DNA of 43,219 bases from an uncultured Candidatus Saccharibacteria bacterium (GCA_964651635.1 CAZYWT010000004.1:1-43219), one strand, 5' to 3'. Counted from the stretch's first letter, positions 2,864 through 43,023 are shown. Notes: generated by a model from the sequence alone, not told the origin. Made by a program: numbers and translations.

Positions 2864-3483
2864 GTGTAATTTGTTACGACAAAAAAGGGAAAGAATTAAA
2901 AAAGAGAAAGATTTCAAAGGAAATTTTGGGCGAAGCAAATGCCAACTTGTTAAAACAAGTTTATGTTTGCGAGTATTCCAACAAAAGACAAGGAGCGGCT
3001 CATAGCAAAGACAGAGGAGAAAAAAGAGGAGGAGGCCGAAAGCCATGGAGGCAAAAAGGAACGGGACGAGCTCGCCATGGAAGCAGAAGGTCCCCTATAT
3101 GGCGAGGGGGAGGGGTAACATTCGGACCCAGAAATGAAAGAAATTACAAAAAAGCGATTACCGAAAAAGTGAAGAAAAAAGCCGTGGAAATGGCTTGGGC
3201 GGAGAAAATGAAAGCGGGGAAACTTGTTTTACTTGACGATATTTCGTTAAAATCAAGCAAAACAAAAGAAGTTGCCGAAATCTTAAAAAATTTGCCGATT
3301 TTCGGCTCGGTTTTAATAGTGACGCCCTCTTATCAAAAAAATTGGGTTTTATCTGCTCGGAACATTCCAAAAGTAAAGGTCTGTCCGTTTTCGGAAATTA
3401 CAACATTTAATATTTTGAGTCATAATTTTGTAGTAATGGACGAGGAAACATTTTCTAAAAAATTAAAAAATTTAAGTAAATAA
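2860..3483 (+). CDS. rplD: 50S ribosomal protein L4 (uL4)
   Basis: 207-aa ORF with KPWRQKGTGRARHGSRRSPIWRGGGV motif. ATGA overlap with the rplC stop. Confidence 0.95.
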   Translation: MSVICYDKKGKELKKRKISKEILGEANANLLKQVYVCEYSNKRQGAAHSKDRGEKRGGGRKPWRQKGTGRARHGSRRSPIWRGGGVTFGPRNERNYKKAITEKVKKKAVEMAWAEKMKAGKLVLLDDISLKSSKTKEVAEILKNLPIFGSVLIVTPSYQKNWVLSARNIPKVKVCPFSEITTFNILSHNFVVMDEETFSKKLKNLSK

Positions 3484-3487
3484 ATTT

Positions 3488-3979
3488 ATGAGTATTTTTA
3501 AGAAAAAAGATAAAGAGAAAAAAGTAAAAAAAGGGAAAGAGGAAGAGAAAGAAAGAAAAGTAGAAGTAGATGAAAATAAAGCCAGCAAAAAAATGTCTTT
3601 CGTTAAAAACAAGAAAAAAGAAAAAAAAGAGGAGGCGGAGAAAAAAGGGAAAACAACCGACGCCAAGAAAAAAGAGGAAAAATCCGCAAAATCCGCCAGA
3701 ATCGCTTATAGAACCTTAATATCTCCCCATATTACCGAAAAAGCCAACAACTTAAGCGAGGAGAGAAAATATATTTTTAGAGTTTTCAAAAATGCCAATA
3801 AAGTTATGATAAAGAAATCGGTGGAGGAGGTTTACAATACCCCGGTGGAAAAAGTTATGATAATCAATGTCCGTCCCAAAAAAAGACGATTAGGCAGAGT
3901 GGAAGGAAAGAAACCGGGCTATAAAAAAGCCATAGTTAAATTAAAAGAAGGCCATTCAATAGAGGCAACGCCAAAATAA
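3488..3979 (+). CDS. rplW: 50S ribosomal protein L23 (uL23) with ~70-aa Lys/Glu-rich N-terminal extension
   Basis: 163-aa ORF. The C-terminal ~95 aa (LISPHITEKA...YIFRV...KKAIVKL) is uL23. The N-terminal K/E low-complexity stretch is extra. Confidence 0.9.
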   Translation: MSIFKKKDKEKKVKKGKEEEKERKVEVDENKASKKMSFVKNKKKEKKEEAEKKGKTTDAKKKEEKSAKSARIAYRTLISPHITEKANNLSEERKYIFRVFKNANKVMIKKSVEEVYNTPVEKVMIINVRPKKRRLGRVEGKKPGYKKAIVKLKEGHSIEATPK

Positions 3980-4807: not shown

Positions 4808-5098
4808 ATGGCGAGAAAAAGTTTAAAAAAACAACCGTATATAGACAAACGACTTCTCAAAAAAATTTCCGACTTGGAAAAGGGAAGTAAGCTCCCCGTA
4901 AAAACTTGGTCGAGAAGCGCCATTATAACTCCGGAAATGGTGGGCTATACTTTTGCCGTTCACAATGGCAAAGAGCATATCCCCGTTTATGTTTCCGAAG
5001 AAATGGTCGGACACAAATTGGGAGAATTTTCTCCGACTACCAAGTTTTTTAAGCATGGAGGAAGAATGGAAAAAGAAGCGGCAAGAAAACCGCAATAA
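4808..5098 (+). CDS. rpsS: 30S ribosomal protein S19 (uS19)
   Basis: 96-aa ORF with [12 protein letters not shown]...MVGHKLGEF motif. Confidence 0.96.
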
Positions 5099-5137
5099 AA
5101 ATAGCCGTATTATTAGTTGTTTTATTATTAAAGATTT

Positions 5138-5473
5138 ATGAAAGTGGAAGCAAAATTAAAACATTTAAGAATATCCCCCCGAAAAACAAGGTTGGTGGCC
5201 AACCTTATAAGGGGAAAGAAAGCCGAAGAGGCGCGGGCGCTTTTAAGGCATACAAGAAAAAGAGCGGCTCGTCCGATGTTAAAACTTTTAGAGAGCGCCA
5301 TAGCAAACGCCAAAAACAATTTTGAACTTGACGAAAAAGGACTAATTGTGTCAGAATTGTCGGTGGACGAAGGTTCAAAATTAAAAAGATGGCGGGCAAG
5401 AGCGAGGGGGCAAGCCGCCAGAATAGAAAAAAGAACAAGCCATATAAATATGACATTGGAGAAAAAAGAATAA
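5138..5473 (+). CDS. rplV: 50S ribosomal protein L22 (uL22)
   Basis: 111-aa ORF with LRISPRKTRLVANLIRGK motif. Synteny. Confidence 0.95.
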   Translation: MKVEAKLKHLRISPRKTRLVANLIRGKKAEEARALLRHTRKRAARPMLKLLESAIANAKNNFELDEKGLIVSELSVDEGSKLKRWRARARGQAARIEKRTSHINMTLEKKE

Positions 5474-6807: not shown

Positions 6808-6866
6808 TCCAAGCCAAAATTGCTCCGCAATTTGGCAGGGGAAAGGGTAAGAAATTCTAATATATG
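6808..6866 (+). promoter_or_regulatory. conserved ~60-nt leader upstream of rpsQ, paralogous to the rpsN leader
   Basis: TCCAAGCCAAAATTGCTCCGCAATTTGGCAGGGGAAAGGGTAAGAAATTCTAATATATG is ~85% identical to 8773-8832. It contains a CCAAAATTGC-tcc-GCAATTTGG hairpin. Confidence 0.6.
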
Positions 6867-7100
6867 TCAAAAAAGAGATTAAAAGGAACAATTATTTCGG
6901 ACAAAATGGATAAAACCGCCGTAGTTAGAGTGGAAACTTTAAAAAAACATCCCAAATACAGGAAAAGGGTTAGGATGTTTAAAAAATATATGGCGGACAA
7001 TCCAAACAATAATCGCAAAGAAGGGGAGGAGGTAATTATAGAAGAATCCCATCCTCTTTCCAAACGAAAAAAGTGGAGGATAGTGGAAGGAGAAAAATAA
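6864..7100 (+). CDS. rpsQ: 30S ribosomal protein S17 (uS17)
   Basis: 78-aa ORF with KGTIISDKMDKTAVVRVE...HPKYRK motif. Confidence 0.94.
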   Translation: MSKKRLKGTIISDKMDKTAVVRVETLKKHPKYRKRVRMFKKYMADNPNNNRKEGEEVIIEESHPLSKRKKWRIVEGEK

Positions 7101-7104
7101 ATTT

Positions 7105-7473
7105 ATGATACAAGAAGGAACAAGATTAAAAGTCGCGGATAACACGGGAGCAAAAATCGTGGAGTGCTTTCGAGTGCTGGGCGGAACAAGAAAAAGATAC
7201 GCTAAAATTGGGGATAGGATAAAAGCCGCCGTAAAAGTTGCCGAGCCGAGAAAAGAAGTGAAAACCCACGATGTAGTAAATGCTGTTGTGGTTCGCCAAA
7301 AAAAGGAAATTAAAAGGGAAGACGGCTCCTACATTCGTTTTGACGAAAATGCCTGTTGTTTAATAAACGACGAGGGGCTTCCTCGCGGAAACAGAATTTT
7401 AGGTCCTATTCCGAGAGAGTTAAAACAAAAAGGTTTTGATAAAATTGTTACGCTGGCAAAAGATGTTGTCTAA
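7105..7473 (+). CDS. rplN: 50S ribosomal protein L14 (uL14)
   Basis: 122-aa ORF with MIQEGTRLKVADNTGAK start. Confidence 0.97.
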   Translation: MIQEGTRLKVADNTGAKIVECFRVLGGTRKRYAKIGDRIKAAVKVAEPRKEVKTHDVVNAVVVRQKKEIKREDGSYIRFDENACCLINDEGLPRGNRILGPIPRELKQKGFDKIVTLAKDVV

Positions 7474-7476
7474 ATT

Positions 7477-7797
7477 ATGAAAATCAAAAAAGACGATACA
7501 ATTTTAATAATAAAGGGCAAGGACAAAGGAAAGAAGAGTAAAGTTTTACGAACATACCCCAAAGAATATAAAATTTTGGCGGAAAATATTAATATAAAGA
7601 AAAAAAGAAAAAGAGGGAGAAAAGAGGGAGAAAAGGGACAAACGGTGGAAATATCGGCTCCTTTTTTTGCCTCCAAAGCCAAGATTATTTGTCCGAAATG
7701 CGGAAAACTGACTCGTATTGGATATAAAATAAAGAGCGGAAAAGAAAGCGGAAGAGAAAAAACAAGAGTTTGCAAGAAATGCGAAAAAGAAATATAA
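7477..7797 (+). CDS. rplX: 50S ribosomal protein L24 (uL24), CxxC...CxxC zinc-ribbon variant
   Basis: 106-aa ORF with KIKKDDTILIIKGKDKGK KOW motif. C-terminus is CPKCGKLTRIGYK...CKKC. Confidence 0.92.
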   Translation: MKIKKDDTILIIKGKDKGKKSKVLRTYPKEYKILAENINIKKKRKRGRKEGEKGQTVEISAPFFASKAKIICPKCGKLTRIGYKIKSGKESGREKTRVCKKCEKEI

Positions 7798-8313
7798 AAA
7801 TGTAAAACTGATTTATGTTAAATATAGAAGAACAATATAAAAAGCGGGGAATCCCAAATCTTATGAAAGCAATGGGATATAAAAATAAAATGGAAGTCCC
7901 TCGCCTTGTTAAGGTTGTGATAAATTGCGGATTTGGAGGCAAGGTGGCGGAAAATATTAATATAAAGAAAAAAAGAAAAAGAGGAAGAAAAGAGGGAGAA
8001 AAGGGACAAACGGTGGAAATATCGGCTCCTTTTTTTGCCTCCAAAGCCAAGATTATTTGTCCGAAATGCGGAAAACTGACTCGTATTGGATATAAAATAA
8101 AGAGCGGAAAAGAAAGCGGAAGAGAAAAAACAAGAGTTTGCAAGAAATGCGAAAAAGAAATATAAAAATGTAAAACTGATTTATGTTAAATATAGAAGAA
8201 CAATATAAAAAGCGGGGAATCCCAAATCTTATGAAAGCAATGGGATATAAAAATAAAATGGAAGTCCCTCGCCTTGTTAAGGTTGTGATAAATTGCGGAT
8301 TTGGAGGCAAGGT
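7578..8313 (+). repeat. tandem duplication, 2 x 368 bp, spanning the rplX 3' part, the intergenic spacer and the rplE 5' part
   Basis: 7578-7945 and 7946-8313 align at offset 368 with a single mismatch (G at 7617 vs A at 7985). GGCGG microhomology is present at 7578, 7946 and 8314. Confidence 0.9.
7815..8165 (+). CDS. chimeric in-frame ORF: uL5 N-terminus (about 45 aa) fused to the uL24 C-terminus (about 71 aa)
   Basis: Created by the 368-bp duplication. The reading frame is maintained across the junction (..GGKVA|ENINIKKK..). It may be a real paralog or an assembly artefact. Confidence 0.4.
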   Translation: MLNIEEQYKKRGIPNLMKAMGYKNKMEVPRLVKVVINCGFGGKVAENINIKKKRKRGRKEGEKGQTVEISAPFFASKAKIICPKCGKLTRIGYKIKSGKESGREKTRVCKKCEKEI

Positions 8314-8772: not shown

Positions 8773-8832
8773 TCCAAGCCGAAATTGCTCCGCGATAGGG
8801 CAGGAGGAAAGAGTAAGAAATTCTAATATATG
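8773..8832 (+). promoter_or_regulatory. conserved ~60-nt leader upstream of rpsN, paralogous to the rpsQ leader
   Basis: TCCAAGCCGAAATTGCTCCGCGATAGGGCAGGAGGAAAGAGTAAGAAATTCTAATATATG aligns with 6808-6866. The last 20 nt before the ATG are identical. Confidence 0.6.
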
Positions 8833-14154: not shown

Positions 14155-14159
14155 AACAA

Positions 14160-14430
14160 AAGCAGGGCGGTTGCTTAGTCCGACTAAGCAACCGGGCGGT
14201 TGCCCCAAGCCAGAGTTGCTTCGCAACACGGTTCGGGACTTGTCCCAAGCCAAAGCAAGGCGCTATTTGAGATAAACAAACATTCAAAACACAACCATAA
14301 TTATCCATAACAAAATTGGACGATCGTCCGATTTTGTTATGGATTTATGCCAAAGCGACAGAAATGCCAGAGATTTGTTAGAGACCCGTTCTCTGGCAAA
14401 TCGCCTGCGAAGCGGGTTTCTGGTTTTTTT
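14160..14430 (+). repeat. intergenic repeat element, copy A (~265 bp, hairpin-rich, ends in a T-run)
   Basis: 98-99% identical to 14797-15067 and 16328-16601. Modules: GGTTGCTTAGT-ccg-ACTAAGCAACC hairpin, second GGGCGGTTGC, GTTGC-ttc-GCAAC, GGGA-cttg-TCCC, the 38-nt hairpin CCATAACAAAAT...ATTTTGTTATGG (14305-14342), and a terminal stem plus T7. Confidence 0.95.
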
Positions 14431-14452
14431 GAACTCTGATTTTTTGATATAT

Positions 14453-14482
14453 AAAAAAAGCGGAACAAGTGTTCCGCTTTTT
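14453..14482. terminator. bidirectional intrinsic terminator
   Basis: A7-GCGGAAC-aagt-GTTCCGC-T5. On the minus strand it lies immediately 3' of the 14497-14682 gene. Confidence 0.8.
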
Positions 14483-14496
14483 GGGTGGAGAGAACT

Positions 14497-14682
14497 TTAC
14501 CCTTTTGCTAGGAAGAATACTCCTAGCCAGAATAGGATAAAGAGAATCTTCCACCCCAGGAGGAGTCCCAGTCCTACTATTAGGGACCCCACCAGCGTAA
14601 CTCCTCCCATAAAGAGCGCCACAAAAACAATAGCGCCCCAGAGAAACGGGAGGAACTCTTTTTTTATAAATTCCATCATCAA
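14497..14682 (-). CDS. small two-TM hydrophobic protein (61 aa)
   Basis: AAGGAGG Shine-Dalgarno 5 nt upstream of the ATG. Near-consensus promoter upstream and a terminator downstream. Two predicted TM helices. Confidence 0.75.
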   Translation of the reverse strand: MMMEFIKKEFLPFLWGAIVFVALFMGGVTLVGSLIVGLGLLLGWKILFILFWLGVFFLAKG

Positions 14683-14745
14683 ACCTCCTTTTTTACTTAT
14701 TTTTTAAGGAGAGGGGAGAGAATATCTCACCCTCTCTCTATCTGT

Positions 14746-14775
14746 ATTATAACATAACGCACCTATATTTGTCAA
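14746..14775 (-). promoter_or_regulatory. near-consensus sigma70 promoter for the small membrane protein gene
   Basis: On the minus strand: TTGACA (14775-14770), 18-nt spacer, TATAAT (14751-14746). A GAGAGGG...CCCTCTC hairpin lies in the leader. Confidence 0.7.
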
Positions 14776-14796
14776 GCCCAGCGTAAGCCATAATAA

Positions 14797-15067
14797 GCAA
14801 AACGGGCGGTTGATTAGTCCGACTAAGCAACCGGGCGGTTGCCCCAAGCCAGAGTTGCTTCGCAACATGGTTCGGGACTTGTCCCAAGCCAAAGCAAGGC
14901 GCGATTTGAGATAAACAAACATTCAAAACACAACCATAATTATCCATAACAAAATTGGACGATCGTCCGATTTTGTTATGGATTTATGCCAAAGCGACAG
15001 AAATGCCAGAGATTTGTTAGAGACCCGCTCTCTGGCAAATCGCCGGCGAAGCGGGTTTCTGGTTTTT
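14797..15067 (+). repeat. intergenic repeat element, copy B
   Basis: Direct repeat of copies A and C. It carries a few point differences (for example TTGATTAG, CAACATGG, GCGCGATT). Confidence 0.95.
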
Positions 15068-15084
15068 AAAACACCTCAAATTGC

Positions 15085-15113
15085 TTGCATTTCTTTTAAG
15101 TTTGTGCTATTAT
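15085..15113 (+). promoter_or_regulatory. candidate promoter of the WG-repeat lipoprotein gene
   Basis: TTGCAT (15085-15090), 17-nt spacer ending in TGC (extended -10), TATTAT (15108-15113). Confidence 0.6.
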
Positions 15114-15169
15114 ACAGACAACTAATAATTAGCAGGTTAACAAATTAATAATCAACAGGAGGAAAAAAA

Positions 15170-16288
15170 ATGAAACTCCAAAAGTTTTTTGCAGTTCTCG
15201 CCATTTTTTTTCTTTTGCTTTTTTCCTGCGTTCAGGAAAAAACGAAAGAAAATATTGTCATTAATGAGGAGAAATTTCCTCCTCATTTAATTCCGGGCGA
15301 GATCCTTCGCTACGGGAATCGTTTACATAGCGAAGGATTAATTGTAGTTAGAGGGTGGGACAAAAAAATGTTTCACCTCAATTTATCGGGCGCTCCTATC
15401 TACGAGGAGCGCTACACGATTGTCGGGAATTTTAAGGAGGGATTGGCAATAGCCTATGATGACGGGTGGTGCCATATCAAAAAAAATGGCGACCCCGCCT
15501 ACAAGAAAAGGTACAGACATGTGGGTTCCTTTTCCGAAGGATTGGCGGTGGTGGAAACATTTGAAGGAGAATTGTATCATATTCTCCCCAATGGTTCTCC
15601 CGCCTATAAAGAGCGGTATAATCCACAAGAGCATAGAATTCTTGCTCTATGGAAAATGGCATTTTCCGAAGGATTGGCTGCAATGAAAAATGGAGATGGA
15701 GAGGGTTGGTTCCATATTAGAAAAAATGGGGACCCCGCCTACAAGAAAAGATACAGACATGTGGGTTCCTTTTCCGAGGGTTTAGCCCCAGCGGACAACG
15801 GAAAAGAGCTAGGGGCTTTCCACATAGATAGGAGTGGTAATCCTATTTATGAAGAAAGATTTAGGGTAGTTAAGTCCTTTTACCAAGGAATAGCTTTAGT
15901 GTTAGACAAGAATTTTAATGCATTTTTTATCGACAGAACTGGAAGACCGATTTTTGGAGATAAAAAATGGAAATTCGCCTGGAGATCTTTTCGAGAAGGA
16001 ATGGCGGCGGTGGTATCAGAAAACCACGGTCGTCGAGAATCATATCATATTAATCTTACGGGAAATGCAGCTTATGAAAAGCGGTTTAAATTCGTAAGTT
16101 CCTTTTTCGAAGGATTAGCGGTGGTGGAAACATTTGAAGGAGAATGGTATCATATTCTCCCCGATGGTTCTCCCGCCTATAAGGAGCGGTATAGGGGCGC
16201 AGAGAGCTTCAGGAATGGAATCGCGGTGGTAGAAGATAGCATAGGGGTCTCTCTTATTATAAATAAGAAGGGCCAGATAATAAAATAA
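15170..16288 (+). CDS. WG/beta-repeat lipoprotein
   Basis: 372-aa ORF with AGGAGG Shine-Dalgarno. Signal peptide with lipobox LLFSC. Repeated F.EGLA.V....G..YHI...G.PAYK.RY units resemble WG-containing repeats. Near-identical internal DNA segments. Confidence 0.8.
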   Translation: MKLQKFFAVLAIFFLLLFSCVQEKTKENIVINEEKFPPHLIPGEILRYGNRLHSEGLIVVRGWDKKMFHLNLSGAPIYEERYTIVGNFKEGLAIAYDDGWCHIKKNGDPAYKKRYRHVGSFSEGLAVVETFEGELYHILPNGSPAYKERYNPQEHRILALWKMAFSEGLAAMKNGDGEGWFHIRKNGDPAYKKRYRHVGSFSEGLAPADNGKELGAFHIDRSGNPIYEERFRVVKSFYQGIALVLDKNFNAFFIDRTGRPIFGDKKWKFAWRSFREGMAAVVSENHGRRESYHINLTGNAAYEKRFKFVSSFFEGLAVVETFEGEWYHILPDGSPAYKERYRGAESFRNGIAVVEDSIGVSLIINKKGQIIK

Positions 16289-16294
16289 TCAAAC

Positions 16295-16318
16295 GCCCGG
16301 CATTTGCCGGGCTTTTTT
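16295..16318 (+). terminator. intrinsic terminator of the WG-repeat gene
   Basis: GCCCGGC-attt-GCCGGGC followed by T6. Confidence 0.85.
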
Positions 16319-16327
16319 ATTAAATAA

Positions 16328-16601
16328 AGCAAAACGGGCGGTTGCTTAGTCCGACTAAGCAACCGGGCGGTTGCCCCAAGCCAGAGTTGCTTCGCAACAC
16401 GGTTCGGGACTTGTCCCAAGCCAAAGCAAGGCGCTATTTGAGATAAACAAACATTCAAAACACAACCATAATTATCCATAACAAAATTGGACGATCGTCC
16501 GATTTTGTTATGGATTTATGCCAAAGCGACAGAAATGCCAGAGATTTGTTAGAGATCCGCTCTCTGGCAAATCGCCGGCGAAGCGGGTTTCTGGTTTTTT
16601 T
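16328..16601 (+). repeat. intergenic repeat element, copy C
   Basis: Direct repeat of copies A and B. It starts right after the WG-gene terminator and ends in a T-run. Confidence 0.95.
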
Positions 16602-16648: not shown

Positions 16649-17725
16649 ATGAAAAGAAACGAAAAAGAAACAAAAGATAACTTAAAAAGCAAGACCCCTT
16701 CGGAATTAAGATTGGATTTAGTTAGCAAGGACTGGGTGGTTATAGCCACCGGCCGAGCAAAACGGCCGGAAAGTTTTTCCGAGAAAGAAAACGAAAAAGA
16801 AAAAACATCGTCATTCGAAAAAGCGGAAAATTGTCCTTTTTGCCAAGATGTAAACAAACAAGCCCGTCCTTCTCTTGTTTTCGCTGGCGGAGAAAAATTA
16901 AAAGAATTTGAAAAAGTTCCCGAAAACTGGTCTCTTATTACCTTGTCAAACAAGTTTCCCGCCGTTACTCCGCAAAAAGACGCGCGAGAAAGAGCCGAAG
17001 GGCCTTATCAACTAATGGACGGGGTAGGGTTTCACGAAATTGTTGTTACGCGTTCCCACGAAAAAGATGTTTCGCTCCTCAAAAAAGAGAAAATTAGAGA
17101 AATTTTAGACGCTTATCAAGAAAGATATTTAGAATTTATGAACGAAAAATTTGTTAATTATATCTCTATTTTCCATAATCACGGAGAAAAGTCGGGCGCC
17201 ACATTAGAACATCCCCATTCCCAAATTATGGCTATTCCCACAACAGACCCGGATATAAGGAACAGCATAATCGGTTCGCGCCGTTATTGGAATTATCACA
17301 ATAAATGTATTCACTGCCAAATTATTGAATGGGACCGGGAAGACGGACAAAGAATTGTGTTTGAAAACGAAAAATTTATCGCTCTTTGCCCTTTTGCTTC
17401 AAAAATGGCTTTTACCGTTAGAATTTACCCCAAAGAGCATTTAAGTTATTTTGAAAGAGTAAATGAAGAGCAAAAAGACGCTCTCGCCGAAGTGTTTCAG
17501 GTGGTGACTTCCAAAATTAAAAAAGCTCTTAATTCTCCTTCTTACAATTTCTTTTTAAGAACTTCTCCCTGCGACGGAAAGGACTATTCTCATTATCACT
17601 GGCATTTTGAAATTTTGCCTCGCACTTCCATTCAAGCAGGATTTGAGTTTGGGGCGGGGATGGAAATTTCCACCATAGAGCCAGAAAAAGCGGCCGGCTA
17701 TTTAAGGGAGCAGGACACAAATTAA
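16649..17725 (+). CDS. galT: galactose-1-phosphate uridylyltransferase family (GalT / HIT superfamily) protein
   Basis: 358-aa ORF with zinc motif CPFC near the N-terminus and active-site HPHSQ (HxHxQ). Confidence 0.8.
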   Translation: MKRNEKETKDNLKSKTPSELRLDLVSKDWVVIATGRAKRPESFSEKENEKEKTSSFEKAENCPFCQDVNKQARPSLVFAGGEKLKEFEKVPENWSLITLSNKFPAVTPQKDARERAEGPYQLMDGVGFHEIVVTRSHEKDVSLLKKEKIREILDAYQERYLEFMNEKFVNYISIFHNHGEKSGATLEHPHSQIMAIPTTDPDIRNSIIGSRRYWNYHNKCIHCQIIEWDREDGQRIVFENEKFIALCPFASKMAFTVRIYPKEHLSYFERVNEEQKDALAEVFQVVTSKIKKALNSPSYNFFLRTSPCDGKDYSHYHWHFEILPRTSIQAGFEFGAGMEISTIEPEKAAGYLREQDTN

Positions 17726-20815: not shown

Positions 20816-20915
20816 GGGGTTGTTATAAAACGCCATAACAACACCATAACAAAATCAGACGATTATCCGTTTGTTATGGATTTATATTTTGCCCCGATAT
20901 TACATTGGGACAAGG
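20816..20915 (+). repeat. repeat-family fragment (copy E)
   Basis: GTTGTTAT...ATAACAAC hairpin, then CCATAACAAA-atcagacgattatccg-TTTGTTATGGATTTAT and GCCCCGATATTACATTGGGAC. These match modules of copy D and of copies A-C. Confidence 0.8.
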
Positions 20916-21015
20916 GAGTGAAGAGGAGTAAAAAACAATAAATAAAAATCAGAATTATATCTTGGTTTTTATATTTTATCTCTTGTGTTATAATAAATTT
21001 GTAATTGGAAATAAT

Positions 21016-22302
21016 ATGAAACGCATTATAGATATTGCTTCGCCGGAAAAGTTTATAAACAATAGCGACGAAAAGGTGAAAAGTTTTTTTAAGAAAAAAA
21101 ACAAGATGCCCAAAAGCAAAAAACCCAAGAAAGAAAAGAGGGGAAAAAGTTTGGTTAAAAAATTTTTTATAGAATTTTTGATTTTAATTTTTTTGGGCGG
21201 AGCCTTTTGGGTGGGTTCTTTAATTTTTTCAAACGCCGAGATTCTCATAACCTTAAAAACGGAGAAAAAAGAATTTTCCGAAATAATAAAAATTAGTGTG
21301 AACCAAGATTTATTAAATATAGAAGAGAGGGCGTTGTCTGGAAGATTTTTTGAAACTTCCGCGGAGAAAACGGAAATATACCAAACAAAAAACAAGGAGG
21401 AAAAAATAACCAAAGCCGGCGGAGAAATCATTGTTTATAACGCCGCCGAGCCGCCGCGCTCGGTTCATTTAGTGGAAAACACTCGTTTTCTTTCTTCGGA
21501 AAAAGGGAAAATTTTCAGAGCCACCGAAAAAATTTATCTTCCCCCGGCTTCTTATTCCGAGGGAGAATTAATTCCTTCTTCTAAAAAAGTTTCCGTGGCG
21601 GCTCAAGAAGGAGGAGAGGAATATAACATCGGTCCTTCCAATTTTTCTGTGCCCGGCCTATCCGGAACAAATCTTTATTACACGATTTGGGCGGAATCGC
21701 AATCGGCTATGAGGGGAGGCGACATAAAAGAGAATGCTATCGTAAAAGCGAATGATTTGGAAGCGGCTCGGGATAACCTTAAAAAAAGTTTAATAGATAA
21801 ATCCTATAATTTATTGACAGAGAAAATATCAAGCGGCTATTTACTGGAGAAAGAGGCGATTTTTGTAAAAAACTTTGATTATTCTTGCTCGGCAAAAGAA
21901 GGGGAAATGGCGGAAACATTTGAATGCAGCGGAAATATATCCGTTCAAGCGCTTGCTTTTTCTTCCAAAGACATAAAAGAATTAGCCGAAAATATTGTAA
22001 CCGCCGAACTGCCTTCGGAAAAAAGATTAGTAAAGGGGGGATTGGAATATGATTTTGCGAAGAAAAACTTAAATCCAGAAGAAGGGGAGGGGAGATTTGA
22101 GTTTAATCTTACCGCCAAAATTTACAGGGAACTCCAAGAAGCAACAATAAAAAATCAAGTTGCGGGAATGAAAGCAAAAGAAGCCAAAAATTTTATTTTT
22201 GAAAATTATGAGCAAGTAGAAAAGGTGGAAATCAGATTAAAGCCGTTTTGGGTGAAAAAGTTGCCAAAAAGCGAAAATATATCGGTCTCCTTGACTTTTT
22301 AA
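21016..22302 (+). CDS. hypothetical membrane-anchored protein
   Basis: The track ORF starts at 20962. ATG at 21016 (MKRIIDIASPEKF) is the more plausible start. One TM helix (FFIEFLILIFLGGAFWVGSLIF) precedes a large extracytoplasmic domain. No recognisable family. Confidence 0.6.
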   Translation: MKRIIDIASPEKFINNSDEKVKSFFKKKNKMPKSKKPKKEKRGKSLVKKFFIEFLILIFLGGAFWVGSLIFSNAEILITLKTEKKEFSEIIKISVNQDLLNIEERALSGRFFETSAEKTEIYQTKNKEEKITKAGGEIIVYNAAEPPRSVHLVENTRFLSSEKGKIFRATEKIYLPPASYSEGELIPSSKKVSVAAQEGGEEYNIGPSNFSVPGLSGTNLYYTIWAESQSAMRGGDIKENAIVKANDLEAARDNLKKSLIDKSYNLLTEKISSGYLLEKEAIFVKNFDYSCSAKEGEMAETFECSGNISVQALAFSSKDIKELAENIVTAELPSEKRLVKGGLEYDFAKKNLNPEEGEGRFEFNLTAKIYRELQEATIKNQVAGMKAKEAKNFIFENYEQVEKVEIRLKPFWVKKLPKSENISVSLTF

Positions 22303-22310
22303 GAGGTATT

Positions 22311-22640
22311 ATGGGTATTTCTAAAAAGGAAAAACAATCTATAGATGAATTTAAGGAAAAGTTGATAAAAAACTTAAGTAATAATTTTGTAAAATTAATA
22401 CTTTTTGGTTCTAAAGCGCGAGGGGATTCGAATAAATATTCTGATATAGACATACTTTTAATTTTAAAAAATTCCAGCGAGAAGGATAAAAACAAAGTTT
22501 ATAATATAGTAGGAGAAATATTGTTAAAATACGGCGTATATTTATCTGTAAAAATATTCTCCCAAAAAGAATATGAAAAACTAAATAAAATCCCTTCTGT
22601 TTTTATGCAGGTAATAAAACGGGAATCAATTGTATTATGA
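22311..22640 (+). CDS. minimal nucleotidyltransferase (MNT-type antitoxin-like)
   Basis: GS.ARGD...SDIDIL motif (LFGSKARGDSNKYSDIDILLIL). AAGAGG Shine-Dalgarno before the ATG at 22311. ATGA overlap with the downstream HEPN gene. Confidence 0.85.
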   Translation: MGISKKEKQSIDEFKEKLIKNLSNNFVKLILFGSKARGDSNKYSDIDILLILKNSSEKDKNKVYNIVGEILLKYGVYLSVKIFSQKEYEKLNKIPSVFMQVIKRESIVL

Positions 22641-23002
22641 TAAGTTATCCCAATGTAGAACCCTCCAAAGAGGAGATAAAAAAACATATTGAATTAGCCA
22701 AAAAAAGGATTCATTCCGCAGAAATCTTGAGAAATGAAAAAGAATATAGAGATGCTGTTTCCAGGGCTTATTATGCTTTTTTCGACGCTGCTTCCGCTTT
22801 ATTATTAACAGAAGGATTGGTCGCTAAAACGCATGCGGGGTTAATAACATTATTTAGTTTACATTTTATTAAAAAAGGAAGAATAAAATCAAAATTTGCT
22901 ACATTTTTCAAAAGAGCTAAAGAGGCAAGAGAGGAAGCTGATTATGAAATATATAAAAATTTTACTCGGAAAGAGACGGAAAGAGACGGGAAGAATTATT
23001 AA
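22637..23002 (+). CDS. HEPN-domain protein, C-terminally truncated by a 10-bp tandem duplication
   Basis: 121-aa ORF with AKEAREEADYE HEPN-type motif. CGGAAAGAGA is duplicated at 22967-22986. Removing one copy extends the ORF to 23057 with a helical tail. Confidence 0.8.
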   Translation: MISYPNVEPSKEEIKKHIELAKKRIHSAEILRNEKEYRDAVSRAYYAFFDAASALLLTEGLVAKTHAGLITLFSLHFIKKGRIKSKFATFFKRAKEAREEADYEIYKNFTRKETERDGKNY

Positions 23003-27212: not shown

Positions 27213-27896
27213 ATGTTAAAAGAATTCATAAACGATTATTACAAGGAAAGAGAAAGGCAAAAAGACAAGAATCGCTTTTATATTACAGACGCCGGGAAAT
27301 GTTGGCGAGCTGTTTTTTTTAAGTTCAAAAAAGCGCCGGAACAACAAAAAGACGGAAGAATTTTAAGAATTTTTGAATACGGAGACAAGGTTCATCAACT
27401 TATTATGGGCGCCTTTTTCGGGTTACAAGCTCTTTATGTTGTGGCGGCGGAAATATATATCCCGCCTCAAGAAATTATTTCGGGGAGAGCGGACGCTATA
27501 ATATCGGTGGATAACGAACTTTTTGTGGTGGATATAAAAAGCGTAAATAATATAAGTTTTAGAAAAATGAAAGAGCCGAAATTAGAGCATATTTATCAAC
27601 TTCAACTTTATCTTTATTATTTTGAAATAAAAAAAGGGATTTTGCTTTATGTGGACAAAGACCAGCAAGATATAAAAGAGTTTGAAGTTGAGTTTAATAA
27701 AAAAATAGCCGAAAATCTTTTGGAAAATTTTAAAAAATTAAAGTCCAAAATAGATGAAAATTTAATCCCTTCCACTCTGCCCGATTATCCCCGAAGCAAG
27801 CAATGCCGGTATTGCTCCTTTAAGCCGATTTGTAAAATTGTCGGCAAGGACGAAATTTCTTGGAAAAAATTCAGAGAAAAAATGGAATTCCAATAA
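27213..27896 (+). CDS. Cas4-like PD-(D/E)xK nuclease with 4-Cys cluster
   Basis: 227-aa ORF. N-terminal Cys (DAGKCWR), GRADAI...VVDIKS (D...DxK), QLQLY (QxxxY) and C-terminal CRYCSFKPIC (Cx2Cx5C). It starts 3 nt after the rpsI stop. Confidence 0.75.
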   Translation: MLKEFINDYYKERERQKDKNRFYITDAGKCWRAVFFKFKKAPEQQKDGRILRIFEYGDKVHQLIMGAFFGLQALYVVAAEIYIPPQEIISGRADAIISVDNELFVVDIKSVNNISFRKMKEPKLEHIYQLQLYLYYFEIKKGILLYVDKDQQDIKEFEVEFNKKIAENLLENFKKLKSKIDENLIPSTLPDYPRSKQCRYCSFKPICKIVGKDEISWKKFREKMEFQ

Positions 27897-28080
27897 AAAA
27901 ATCAGAGACCCGCTCTCTGGCGATTTGCCAGAGAGCGGGTCTCTGTCACTCATCTCTGTCACCCATCTATTGCGGGCGGTTGCCCCGATATTACATCGGG
28001 ACAATCGTCCTTAAATAAATCCATAACAAAATCAGACGATTATCCCTTTGTTATGAATAATGTTAGTTGTATTTTGAATG
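27897..28080 (-). repeat. diverged inverted copy (D) of the intergenic repeat element
   Basis: Perfect 19-bp-stem hairpin CAGAGACCCGCTCTCTGGC-gattt-GCCAGAGAGCGGGTCTCTG (27903-27945). It also carries GGGCGGTTGCCCCGATATTACATCGGGAC and ATAAATCCATAACAAAATC...TTTGTTATGAATAAT...TTTTGAATG. Together these match the reverse complement of copies A-C. Confidence 0.85.
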
Positions 28081-28267
28081 GTCTGGATTTATTTGCTTTT
28101 ATTTTATTGCATTTCCATATTATTTTTTTATTGATTTGCGTGTCCTTGAAATTAGCGAGGGGAAGAGGGAATTCCTCATCCTAATTCTTGCCGCGGTAGC
28201 GGAGAGAATAGGGCTCGCGTTTGGACATTTTAGTTGTCCGACGCGATTTCTCACCTCGATTTTATTG

Positions 28268-28294
28268 GGCGGAACAAGTTGTTCCGCCTTTTTT
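28268..28294 (+). terminator. intrinsic terminator upstream of murA
   Basis: GGCGGAAC-aagtt-GTTCCGCC followed by T6. The stem sequence is nearly the same as the 14460-14477 terminator. Confidence 0.8.
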
Positions 28295-28332
28295 ATTTAT
28301 TTTTCTTGCTAATTTTTTCTATTTAATATAAG

Positions 28333-32130: not shown

Positions 32131-32469
32131 GTAAAATTAACTTTTTGGGTTAATTTGATAGATTAAAAACAGCGGGTTAAAAATTTGATAAAAGAAAGGA
32201 ATAAGTATGAAACGGTTTTAGTGGAAGTTACATGCGGGAAGTGTGGGAGAGTAAGAAAATTAGGACCCGGGCTTCATCAATTGTTCCGGTTTTTTATTAA
32301 AAAACAAATAGTAATAAAAAATGTCAGGTTTCTGCTTATTGGCATATTGGCAAATTTTTCGGGCGGTTGCCCCGATTTGAATTTTGGGTTTTGTTTGCTA
32401 TACTTAAACATAATAAAATAAGGGGGTGGGATACTAATTCGTGTCCCGTTTTCTTATAGTGAAATCAAG

Positions 32470-38525: not shown

Positions 38526-38563
38526 ATATAGAATTTCGGCGCCTGCCTTGACATCACATCGAT

Positions 38564-38602
38564 ATTGGGCGGTTGCTTCCTCTGGGGAAGCAACCGCCCA
38601 AT
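38564..38602. repeat. 17-bp-stem hairpin built from the GGGCGGTTGC family motif
   Basis: ATTGGGCGGTTGCTTCC-tctgg-GGAAGCAACCGCCCAAT, flanked by the GATATT / ACATCG motifs also seen in copies D and E. Confidence 0.8.
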
Positions 38603-38650
38603 AATTACATCGGAACAGCTCTTTTCGCGGCGCTTTTTTACAAACAAAAG

Positions 38651-38765: not shown

Positions 38766-38848
38766 CATCAATTTTATTCAAATCTTTGATTTGATTATAA
38801 AATTGAATGTCTGCCGAAATGAAATGTAGGCAGAAATATGTGGGTATT

Positions 38849-39109
38849 ATGTTTTTCGTTTATGTTTTAAGAAGCGTTGTGGATAAAAAACTTTATATTG
38901 GATTCACTTCTAATCTAAAGAAAAGAGTTGATAAACATAATTCTAAAGAGGTCAAATCAACAAGAGATAGAGTTCCCTTTAAACTTATTTATTACGAATC
39001 TTATATAAATGAAGAATATGCGAGAAAAAGAGAACGCAAACTTAAAAAAATGGGTTCCAAAAGAGAGACCTTAAAAAAAGAATTAGAAAAAACTTTAAAG
39101 GACAATTAA
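38849..39109 (+). CDS. stand-alone GIY-YIG nuclease domain protein (YhbQ/UPF0213-like)
   Basis: FFVYVLRS..KKLYIGFTSNLKKRVDKHN and a downstream E match the GIY-YIG pattern. The track ORF begins at 38807. ATG at 38849 fits family N-termini, so the start is uncertain. Confidence 0.75.
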   Translation: MFFVYVLRSVVDKKLYIGFTSNLKKRVDKHNSKEVKSTRDRVPFKLIYYESYINEEYARKRERKLKKMGSKRETLKKELEKTLKDN

Positions 39110-39339: not shown

Positions 39340-39412
39340 GTCCACGAGATTCGTCTATTGGTTAAGACTACGAAGTAGTGTAAATGGGGTTCAATTCCCT
39401 GATTTCGTGGAC
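39340..39412 (+). ncRNA. tRNA-like element lacking a normal anticodon arm (pseudo-tRNA or tRNA-like RNA)
   Basis: 11-bp terminal stem GTCCACGAGAT/ATTTCGTGGAC, canonical D-arm GTCT-ATTGGTTA-AGAC and T-arm TGGGG-TTCAATT-CCCTG. Only 15 nt lie where a 17-nt anticodon arm plus variable loop should be. Confidence 0.5.
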
Positions 39413-39445
39413 GGGGAAGGTAGCGCGCTACCTTCCCCATTTTTT
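39413..39445 (+). terminator. strong intrinsic terminator ending the tRNA operon
   Basis: GGGGAAGGTAG-cgcg-CTACCTTCCCC followed by ATTTTTT. Confidence 0.9.
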
Positions 39446-39452
39446 ATACTTT

Positions 39453-39461
39453 TGGTATAAT
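39453..39461 (+). promoter_or_regulatory. extended -10 promoter (TGGTATAAT) of the R-M operon, apparently leaderless
   Basis: TTTTGGTATAAT ends 6 nt before the ATG at 39468. No Shine-Dalgarno is possible. Confidence 0.6.
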
Positions 39462-39467
39462 AAAGAT

Positions 39468-40052
39468 ATGATTATAAAAATAAAAAATGAAGAACTTGCC
39501 AAGGAGTTAGTTGGTGAAAGGAAAAAATTTCCTAAATATACCTCTCAAATTATAAATTTAGCAGGACAAAATTCTCATGGGACAAGACCTAAGGTGGTAA
39601 GACAACTTTCCGAATTAATAAATGAATGTCCCGAAAAGAGTTATGAAGGATGGAAAAAATGGTATTTAAAAAAATATCCAAAAGCAATAGAAAATGCTAC
39701 TGAAAAAATAGATTTAATGATTAAAAACCTTGAAGAAGCAATTTCTAAAATTGACAAAAAAATGGTTAGAGAGTGGGTTGAAGATTTAGTTTTGGAAAAA
39801 ACTTTTATAGAATTAAGATTTCAGGAGGCAATTTTGAAAAAAATTGCAAAAATTAAAGGAAAAAAATAGAGGTTGTCCAATCCCGGTGAAGAAAGTAAAG
39901 GAATAGATGGATTTATTGGTAATATCCCTATATCTATAAAGCCGGATACATATAAAACCAAGAAATTACTAAGAGAAAATATAGACGCTAAAATAATTTA
40001 TTATAAAAAAACAAAAAGTGGATTGGATATTGATATTGAAGATTTTATTTAA
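39468..40052 (+). pseudogene. type II restriction endonuclease candidate interrupted by one in-frame TAG (codon 134)
   Basis: The ORF from ATG 39468 stops at TAG 39867-39869. The same frame then stays open for 60 more codons (RLSNPGEESKGIDGFIGNIPISIKPDTYK...) to TAA 40050-40052. It lies directly upstream of a DNA methyltransferase. As I recall it resembles the MjaI-type family (unverified). Confidence 0.65.
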
Positions 40053-40059
40053 TTAAAAT

Positions 40060-41007
40060 ATGAAAACTAAACACAAAATTATTATTGGAGATTCTAGAAA
40101 TATGTCAGAAATTGATAATGAATCTATAAATCTAATTATTACATCTCCTCCTTATTGGCAGATAAAGGATTATGGTAATCAAAATCAAATTGGTTTTAAT
40201 GATAATTATAAGGTTTATGTGGAAAAGTTAAATGAGGTTTGGAGAGAATCATATAGAGTTATAGAACCGGGTTGTCGTCTTTGTATAAATATAGGGGATC
40301 AATTTGCTAGAGCCCTAACCTATGGAAGGTATAAAATAATTCCAATACGAACAGAAATAATTAATTATTGCGAATCAATTGGTTTTGATTATATGGGCGC
40401 TATTATTTGGCAAAAAATGACAAGTATGAATACAAGCGGAGGCGCTTCTGTTATGGGTTCTTATCCTTATCCAAGAAATGGGCATATAGTTATTGATTAT
40501 GAGTTTATTCTCTTATTTAAAAAGTTAGGAAAATCTAAAAATAAAAGAAACAAAGAGGTAAAAGAAAAGTCAAAATTAACCAAGGAAGAGTGGAAAAATT
40601 ATTTTAGGGGTCATTGGAATTTTTCTGGTGAAAAACAAAATAAAGGGCATATAGCTATGTTTCCCGAGGAATTACCCTTTCGTCTTATAAAAATGTTTAG
40701 TTTTATAGGAGATACAATTCTTGACCCATTTTTGGGAAGTGGAACAACAACTAAAGTTTCTAAAAAATTAAATAGAAATTCTGTTGGATACGAGATAAAT
40801 GATAAATTTCTACCGCTCATAAAAAAGAAAGTTGGAATAAATAATAAGGCATTATTTAAAGATAGGCATTCTTTTGAAATTATTTATCAAAATAAAGACA
40901 ATTTTAATCAAAGTGAGAATAAAAGATTTTTAGAAAATTCTGATAATTATATAAAAAACAGGATTAATCATCCTGATTATTGGAAACAATTTAAGAATAT
41001 AAATTAA
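40060..41007 (+). CDS. beta-class N4-cytosine/N6-adenine DNA methyltransferase (SPPY type, probably m4C)
   Basis: 315-aa ORF. Motif IV IITSPPYW lies near the N-terminus. AdoMet motif I DPFLGSGTT lies near the C-terminus (order IV then I means beta class). Confidence 0.88.
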   Translation: MKTKHKIIIGDSRNMSEIDNESINLIITSPPYWQIKDYGNQNQIGFNDNYKVYVEKLNEVWRESYRVIEPGCRLCINIGDQFARALTYGRYKIIPIRTEIINYCESIGFDYMGAIIWQKMTSMNTSGGASVMGSYPYPRNGHIVIDYEFILLFKKLGKSKNKRNKEVKEKSKLTKEEWKNYFRGHWNFSGEKQNKGHIAMFPEELPFRLIKMFSFIGDTILDPFLGSGTTTKVSKKLNRNSVGYEINDKFLPLIKKKVGINNKALFKDRHSFEIIYQNKDNFNQSENKRFLENSDNYIKNRINHPDYWKQFKNIN

Positions 41008-42858: not shown

Positions 42859-42991
42859 AATCCATAAAAATTCCTATATAGGTCAAGATACATATAATAC
42901 ATCTTGTTTTGATTTTGTTTTGGTTATTTTCTATCATTATATTTTATCAATCACCCATAACAGGGCGGTCGCCCGATACAATAATAGGGGC

Positions 42992-43023
42992 GGTTGCTTA
43001 GTCGGACTAAGCAACCATTTTTT
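42992..43023 (+). repeat. repeat-family module 1 in inverted orientation, terminator-like
   Basis: GGTTGCTTAGT-cgg-ACTAAGCAACC followed by ATTTTTT. It is the reverse complement of the first hairpin of copies A-C, preceded by GGGCGGTCGC and GGGCGGTTGC. Confidence 0.8.

Follow-up and report, generated by a model that had tools for sequence, protein, structure and literature searches.

Organisation of the map-galT locus

In this study, we analysed a 43,219-nucleotide contig of an uncultured Candidatus Saccharibacteria bacterium (GCA_964651635.1 CAZYWT010000004.1:1-43219; hereafter the window), with a focus on a non-coding repeat of ~273 nt, here named E, that is present in three direct copies between the genes map and galT. 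The gene order of the window is a ribosomal-protein cluster, EF-Tu through secY-adk-map, followed by galT-tpiA-RNaseH-like-alaS. Homologs of its GalT point to the Patescibacteria (candidate phyla radiation, CPR), near Gribaldobacteria, Portnoybacteria and Nealsonbacteria, with the best relative being 70% identical. The copies of E, designated A, B and C and delimited by a repeat search and MAFFT alignment, alternate with two single-gene cassettes:

14156..14428, plus strand: copy A of E, beginning 2 nt past the map stop codon; the core common to copies B and C is 14165-14428
14429..14794, minus strand: cassette 1 (366 nt), with a 60-amino-acid (aa) open reading frame (ORF) at 14500-14679 for a protein with two transmembrane (TM) segments, an AGGAGG ribosome-binding site, a promoter at 14775-14746 and a terminator hairpin at 14482-14455
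14795..15067, plus strand: copy B of E, with private substitutions at 14813, 14868 and 14903 in its 5' half
15068..16326, plus strand: cassette 2 (1259 nt), with a WG-repeat lipoprotein gene at 15170-16288, an extended -10 promoter-like site and a terminator at 16295-16312
16327..16599, plus strand: copy C of E, followed by the galT promoter-like sequence TGCTATAAT and galT at 16649-17725

The original prediction that this locus holds three near-identical copies in the same orientation was thus borne out by both repeat search and alignment. The copies start 639 and 1532 nt apart. In an ungapped comparison copies A and C are 96 and 99% identical to copy B, respectively, and when aligned A matches B at 98.1% over the 264-nt core and C matches B at 98.5% over 273 nt, the first ~9 nt of copy A being divergent from both of the others. 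Six substitutions in all were found in the shared core, three of them specific to B (A at 14813, T at 14868 and G at 14903), two to A (T at 14389 and at 14406) and one to C (T at 16556), and a stretch of 222 nt is identical between A and C. The copies have identical ends in three differing flank contexts; their 5' flanks (aaataaa, ccataat and ttaaata) are A/T-rich with ATAA nearby, as judged from three copies with a fuzzy boundary. The GC content of E is 47% versus 37.5% for the window. All full-length copies lie within 2.4 kb and the ~20 other intergenic regions of the window contain fragments only, a distribution that favours local copying over dispersal.

Each cassette gene had been credited with its own promoter and terminator. 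For cassette 1 this description held, as its minus-strand promoter (14775-14746) matches the consensus at 12/12 positions (TTGACA, 18-nt spacer, TATAAT), its strong terminator hairpin (14482-14455) has 12 bp and its product, of 60 rather than 61 aa, has two TM segments. For the WG gene the terminator was found as claimed, but the promoter is weaker than had been proposed, since the candidate (TTGCAT, 17-nt spacer, extended -10 TGCTATTAT) was read by eye and falls below the scan threshold. The 60-aa protein matched no Pfam family and had no homolog among 1.84 billion representative proteins, and a comparison by eye, made without alignment, revealed no similarity to the small ORFs that follow map in related genomes. 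The WG-repeat gene matches PF14903 and its product has a nearest homolog of 40% identity; the best such homologs are encoded in unrelated gene contexts with no E there. An ORFan beside a gene at most 40% identical to anything known is typical accessory content. A foreign origin of the cassettes on compositional grounds was considered and dropped, as their GC content and GC at third codon positions (GC3) are close to those of neighbouring genes. Exact look-up of the map and WG proteins matched no record.

Modular structure of E

Every sub-feature previously listed for E can be read in its sequence. These are a hairpin of 11-12 bp (16340-16364 in copy C), two GGGCGGTTGC boxes, the sequences GGGCGGTTGCCCC and GGGACTTGTCCC with AAGCC after each, a 38-nt hairpin (16476-16513) with CGATCG inside, and a terminal stem, AGAGAYCCGY / GCGGGTTTCT, followed by GG and a T-run. 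The only promoter-like site within E is a weak one (9/12) that is present in each copy. Several of the sub-features combine into modules, which in copy C are located as follows:

16336..16377, plus strand: modules M1 and M2; M1 is a GGGCGGTTGC box with the 12-bp palindrome GGTTGCTTAGTC/GACTAAGCAACC, and M2 is the mini-hairpin CGGGCGGTTGCCCC
16376..16422, plus strand: module M4, comprising CCAAGCC, the hairpin GTTGC-TTC-GCAAC, the GGGACTTGTCCC hairpin and a second CCAAGCC
16452..16519, plus strand: module M5, comprising the flank ATTCAAAACACAACCATAATTAT and the 38-nt hairpin (16476-16513) centred on GGACGATCGTCC
16551..16601, plus strand: module M6, comprising AGAGAYCCGCTCTCTGGCAAATCGCC...GCGGGTTTCT, GG and a T-run, terminator-like on the plus strand

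The hexamer CGATCG occurs in the window only at 14321, 14960 and 16492, each time as the centre of the big hairpin of E.

Dispersal of the modules through the window

Searches with E by blastn-short and an all-against-all comparison of the intergenic regions of the window revealed at least six other intergenic regions in which modules stand alone, follow another order or are inverted, with modules M1-M6 having 2-6 intergenic copies each. E is therefore not the self-contained element that it had been taken for. The GGGCGGTTGC box has 10 exact copies, every one of them intergenic, and 15 copies with at most one mismatch versus 1.29 expected, a number reached in none of 100 shuffles; this over-represented 10-mer could be a protein-binding or uptake-type signal. 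Of the 10 exact copies, whose sites extend across 14165-43016, nine share the plus strand with nearly all genes. The module-bearing sites outside the three E copies are:

6808..6863, plus strand: M4-like module (CCAAGCC and hairpin) fused to a ribosome-binding site and ATG, in the S17 leader
8773..8829, plus strand: second M4-like leader module, upstream of the S14 gene
20844..20913, plus strand: M5 variant hairpin and a CCCCGATATTACATTGGGACAA hairpin, between alaS and the next gene; 97% identical to the copy at 28021
27903..28080, no strand assigned: reshuffled modules, with M6 as a perfect 18+18 palindrome (27903-27945), M2 (27973-27989), the hairpin CCCCGATATTACATCGGGAC, and M5 with its flank inverted (28015-28080)
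32360..32376, plus strand: solo M2 copy, CGGGCGGTTGCCCCGAT
38563..38603, no strand assigned: M1 variant, a full palindrome TATTGGGCGGTTGCTTCC...GGAAGCAACCGCCCAATA
42963..43016, plus strand: GGGCGGTCGCCC mini-hairpin and M1 copy (42988-43016), then ATTTTTT

At these sites CGGGCGGTTGCCCC recurs at 27973 and 32360, and it is AGAGACCCGCTCTCTGGCAAATCGCC that forms the perfect palindrome at 27903-27945. The CCATAACAAAAT hairpin recurs at 20844 and 28015, and only at 28015 is its flank inverted. Both M5 variants have lost the inner palindrome with no compensation, that at 20844..20913 having decayed without compensating changes. In the S17 and S14 leaders, CCAAGCC and a GTTGCTYCGCAA hairpin recur as part of a 57-nt module that the two leaders have in common at 89% identity. 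A search of Rfam with the module-bearing regions outside E, including the S17/S14 leader module, gave no family match. Overall, the modules of E are short GC-rich imperfect palindromes that are multicopy and extragenic and vary in order and orientation between loci, which are the features of a mosaic repeat.

Comparison with related genomes

The window was compared with four relatives (L003, L006, L009 and L010), which are related to it at the level of a family (~70% aa identity) rather than as strains. All four keep the same gene order. The gap between map and galT, in contrast, differs in each of them: it is empty in L006, contains a 43-aa ORF in L009, a 63-aa ORF and a GT2 gene in L003, and a 79-aa ORF, a DUF218 gene and a GT2 gene in L010. 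Since this gap holds from none to three unrelated genes in the relatives, the copies of E sit in a hot spot of gene-content change. The gap between L29 and S17 is only 8-10 nt in L003 and L009, and for that reason the M4-like leader module of the window looks like an inserted repeat that supplies translation start signals. A further module-bearing gap, that between alaS and the next gene (20816-20961), contains the M5 variant and another hairpin in the window, an FtsA-like gene in L003 and L010, and a 94-aa ORF in L006, which hints at a coincidence between gaps that bear modules and sites where gene content changes.

No homolog of E or its modules was identified by blastn or nhmmer in the syntenic loci of the four relatives or in all 152 loci fetched, and sequence collections yielded no other contigs of the same organism or of close relatives. 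The big hairpin of E, CCATAACAAAATNNGACGATNNTCC, had only two chance matches, to Flavobacterium, among genome contigs. A looser pattern, CCATAACAAA-N14-22-TTTGTTATGG, had at least 120 matches in metagenomes that were mostly unrelated terminator palindromes, with E in none among the matches listed. Searches of viral contigs with module patterns returned chance matches in high-GC contigs or none, and distant BLAST searches against phage and plasmid collections gave no match.

Two of the relatives were found to have repeat families of their own that are unrelated to E. In L006, several intergenic regions contain arrays of the heptamer GTAACRT, and a 143-nt repeat is present with inverted arms of 54 nt in an element of ~230 nt. 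In L010, the ribosomal operon contains a 138-nt repeat, and long CTAAATCC/GGATTTAG hairpins occur as well. Taken beside E, these private repeats indicate that lineage-specific repeats colonise the intergenic regions of this clade. The repeat loci, which lie within the same ribosomal operon, are 3701-3838, 7061-7240, 20864-20987, 5036-5245 and 17851-18079 in L006, and 647-743, 3116-3253 and 4696-4833 in L010.

The CGATCG core of the big hairpin of E is also present in other CPR-like contigs, within intergenic ACGATCGT palindromes (L006 at 12511 and 12627, L010 at 8251, L016 at 694 and L127 at 636), a sample too small for significance. Two of these palindromes lie in CCATAACAAA...TTTGTTATGG hairpins whose inner stems differ yet stay self-complementary. 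The L127 hairpin with the CGATCG core is directly upstream of a TTGACA promoter-like site, and the L010 palindrome is just downstream of a TTGACA-GATAAT promoter-like site.

Proposed nature of E: a mosaic intergenic repeat

The original prediction had left three options for E: a structured RNA or 3' UTR module, a non-autonomous mobile element, or a scaffold on which recombination adds and removes cassettes. The structured RNA was not supported by our analyses, and with moderate confidence a recombination scaffold or repeat element fits best given the variable map-galT gap in the relatives. Judged from its sequence, we give an even chance to the proposal that E is a lineage-specific mosaic intergenic repeat comparable to bacterial interspersed mosaic elements (BIMEs), neisserial intergenic mosaic elements (NIMEs) and BOX elements, which was copied as a unit around two accessory genes and provides portable homology for gene gain and loss. 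In this proposal, five to six short palindromic modules, all rich in GC, follow one another in fixed order in E, and each is a member of a small repeat family scattered through the intergenic regions of the genome.

We infer a recombination route and a role as terminator or insulator for such a repeat. The gain of two unrelated accessory genes between map and galT would have been accompanied by copying of the entire composite in a single orientation, with each E potentially acting as ~270 bp of portable homology. Circular or transformed DNA with one gene and one E could recombine with a resident E to produce E-gene-E, a second such event could produce E-gene1-E-gene2-E, and recombination between flanking copies of E could loop a cassette out again. 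The hairpins of E, chiefly the last stem with its T-run, probably also stop or insulate plus-strand transcription from the ribosomal operon, which is highly expressed, and from the WG gene.

Several points weigh against this proposal. The distribution of E is known from 43 kb of the genome only, and neither a polymorphic empty/filled E site nor gain or loss via E was observed. The six substitutions have no recombinant pattern, and the terminal hairpin passes a terminator scan in just one of the three copies (copy A). In addition, a fixed composite of 273 nt at 98-99% identity is larger and more uniform than typical BIME/NIME arrays, and the discrete ends common to the copies would also be compatible with a mobile element or with an att site for site-specific recombination.

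Among known systems, BIMEs, which are clusters of enterobacterial repetitive extragenic palindromes (REPs), resemble E in being extragenic GC-rich imperfect palindromes of 20-40 nt arranged in mosaics between transcription units, and in having neither coding capacity nor terminal inverted repeats. BIMEs have been linked to recombination, mRNA 3'-end protection and termination (PMC3184786). E differs in that it has no sequence similarity to them, resides in a CPR host and joins five to six different modules in a fixed order over 273 nt, whereas BIMEs consist of REPs in alternating orientations with short linkers. BOX elements are likewise modular (boxA, boxB and boxC), ~100-300 nt in length, hairpin-forming, intergenic and lineage-restricted, and those of Streptococcus pneumoniae are co-transcribed with adjacent genes, whose expression they can influence (PMC3184786). 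They are dispersed in more than 100 copies and thought to be mobilised by an insertion sequence (IS) transposase, while for E a local triplet and scattered single modules were seen.

The neisserial systems offer a parallel to the locus as a whole. NIME arrays are intergenic, span 200-2700 bp, are built of modular repeats (RS units, dRS3) and flank genes for surface proteins, pilC1 among them, where they are proposed sites of integration and deletion; minimal mobile elements of Neisseria are whole-gene cassettes that occupy a fixed site flanked by conserved genes, vary from strain to strain and are moved by homologous recombination alone (PMC3898611). In a comparable manner, the genes for a lipoprotein and a membrane peptide lie between the conserved map and galT, and differing whole-gene cassettes occupy that site across genomes, although here the genomes are family-level relatives and not strains. 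Differences are that the modules of E have no bounding 20-bp unit like dRS3 and no known link to a phage integrase, and that homology is located in repeats inside the site rather than in the flanking conserved genes as in classic minimal mobile elements.

If the mosaic-repeat proposal is correct, a CPR bacterium with a tiny genome and two of four relatives would each possess private families of palindromic repeats that evolve fast and occupy intergenic regions even within the ribosomal-protein operon, with the repeat of the window bracketing newly gained surface and membrane genes. This would represent a simple, recombinase-free means of accessory-gene turnover in organisms that rely on DNA uptake and have few classical mobile elements.

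Alternative explanations

It is distinctly unlikely, in our estimation, that E is or contains a plus-strand structured RNA, either as a 3' untranslated region or terminator module of the ribosomal operon or as a small RNA of ~110 nt bounded by the weak TAAACA-17-CATAAT site within E and by the terminal hairpin with its U-run. The predicted fold of the plus strand has an energy of -109.5 kcal/mol (z = -7.5 versus shuffles), E is a GC-rich island in an AT-rich genome, each copy has the promoter-like site (9/12), a T-run follows the terminal stem on the plus strand, and copy A, which directly follows map with no terminator between them, probably forms the 3' end of the map transcript. However, the minus strand folds equally well (z = -6.9), and per copy G-U pairs are about as numerous on the plus as on the minus strand (7-9 versus 6-8), with energies that are also similar (-103 to -111 versus -102 to -108 kcal/mol), as is expected for DNA palindromes. 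Constraint at the RNA level had been suggested because the only two substitutions in the terminal stem were C-to-T changes that convert G-C pairs to G-U. Both changes exist (14389 in A and 16556 in C) and retain G-U pairing, but they are not the only ones, as a third substitution (14406) falls in the enclosed inner palindrome CGCCGGCG of the terminal region. A neutral transition gives G-U on a given strand ~50% of the time, so at p ~0.25 the two changes are statistically uninformative, and with both strands equal in folding and G-U counts the argument for constraint is not supported. The finding that the hairpins recur inverted and reshuffled elsewhere in the window is expected of DNA palindromes and not of a folded RNA with a defined architecture, and the uncompensated loss of the inner stem in the M5 variants and the absence of E from all relatives examined also argue against an RNA. 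E had not been recognised as a known RNA family, and this was borne out at both gathering and permissive thresholds, with three tRNAs as the only Rfam matches in the window at the gathering threshold and no match for E even at an E-value of <= 10; the best matches inside E were miRNA models with 23 bits versus thresholds of 98-211. A structured-RNA interpretation of E is thus not supported by its sequence. These results also call for caution, since repeats that are rich in both hairpins and GC look like structured RNAs in AT-rich genomes until the two strands are compared and the dispersal of modules is examined.

Mobility of other kinds was also considered, beginning with E as a non-autonomous element that is moved as single-stranded DNA by a transposase encoded elsewhere, such as a palindrome-associated transposable element (PATE) of the IS200/IS605 type or a REP doublet forming a hairpin (REPIN) moved by a REP-associated tyrosine transposase (RAYT), with the three copies being local hops. 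Elements of the IS200/IS605 type and REPINs have hairpins instead of terminal inverted repeats, produce no target duplication and have an orientation bias. E resembles them in its subterminal hairpins at both ends (16340-16364 and 16551-16592), in the shared orientation of all copies, which is that of nearly all genes, and in its discrete ends, which have neither terminal inverted repeats (the first 50 nt and the reverse complement of the last 50 aligned with a score of 6, 10/11 columns matched) nor a direct duplication common to the flanks of A, B and C. These two absences set E apart from miniature inverted-repeat transposable elements. Its modules, moreover, behave like dispersed REPs, and those of the M4 type are inserted in the ribosomal operon where relatives have 8-10-nt gaps. 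Even so, we consider such an element unlikely, as none of the proteins encoded in the 43 kb is a transposase, integrase or tyrosine recombinase, no nucleotide motif was evident 5' of the three copies, as far as their fuzzy boundary can be read, beyond an A/T-rich ATAA, the window elsewhere contains fragments but no full elements, and three full-length copies in adjacent intergenic regions would be a ~1% outcome of random insertion among ~23 such regions. The earlier statements that terminal inverted repeats, a transposase and credible coding capacity are all lacking agree with our end alignment, protein searches and ORF comparison, respectively; ORFs in E run into differing flanks and none is conserved between copies. 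A slim chance attaches to E being an att-like site for site-specific recombination, in which case the locus would be a small cassette array resembling clusters of attC sites lacking integron-integrases (CALIN) or tandem cis-mobilizable elements (CIMEs), which are bounded by att sites and devoid of an integrase, with its recombinase encoded elsewhere. Chromosomal integron arrays have high identity between repeats, and attC arrays such as the Vibrio cholerae repeats (VCRs) are like E in their repeat-gene-repeat-gene-repeat layout of single-gene units and in repeats that are highly similar, hairpin-forming and co-oriented, in the case of E whatever the gene orientation. The hairpin-rich sites of E could fold as single strands, and the array is located in a gene-content hot spot. 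Against this, attC sites are imperfect palindromes of 57-141 nt bounded by R'' (RYYYAAC) and R' (GTTRRRY), while E at 273 nt is twice the length of the largest of them and has neither core site on either strand, including its 15-nt flanks. Furthermore, no IntI or other integrase was found in the window, both cassette genes carry their own promoter-like and terminator signals, one cassette is inverted, and the modules occur singly in ordinary intergenic regions outside any array, which is unexpected for a dedicated att site. A variant of this explanation, that E is the recombination site of an undescribed CPR gene-cassette system in which each single-gene unit has one 273-nt hairpin-rich site, is very unlikely. 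In this variant, units would move in and out directly behind the ribosomal-protein operon via a remote recombinase or folded single-stranded DNA, and the system, if true, would be functionally analogous to integrons but use unrelated sites. Diversity-generating retroelements, CRISPR/TIGR arrays, retrons and TnpB/IscB guide RNAs were rejected, as the repeat architecture is unfitting and the window encodes no reverse transcriptase, Cas, Tas, TnpB or IscB. Lastly, the chance is remote that the array is in part an assembly artefact in which alternative alleles or loci sharing E were stitched in series at the repeat. The 222-nt identity between A and C is hard for short-read assemblers, and the same contig has a suspicious 368-bp tandem duplication (299/300 aligned bases identical) that creates a chimeric L5/L24 ORF. 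The copies of E, however, have private substitutions and three different flank pairs, each cassette is a unique sequence that has to adjoin E at its two ends, and even if there were an artefact, E would still flank variable cassettes at the map-galT locus.

Additional features of the window

The tandem duplication consists of 300-nt copies at 7577-7876 and 7945-8244 with one mismatch, and takes in the 3' half of the L24 gene together with the start of L5. The resulting ORF (7815-8165) joins the N-terminus of L5 to the C-terminus of L24 and lies between intact L24 and L5 genes. The duplication may be genuine or may have arisen in assembly.

Compared with the gene order of the relatives, the window has several other accessory insertions (22248-23002, 27213-27896, 38807-39109 and 39384-41007). 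These comprise a nucleotidyltransferase/HEPN pair before infA, a PD-(D/E)XK (Cas4-like) nuclease gene after the S9 gene, a GIY-YIG gene between tRNA genes, and an MjaI-like restriction enzyme with an N4/N6 methyltransferase.

A GC-richer stretch at 28140-28300 has no convincing ORF and only sub-threshold matches to Rfam. It ends in an orphan terminator, GGCGGAACAAGTTGTTCCGCC with a T-run, whose hairpin is nearly identical to that of the cassette 1 terminator (GCGGAACAAGTGTTCCGC, 14459-14476). This stretch may be a small RNA or the remnant of a related mini-gene.

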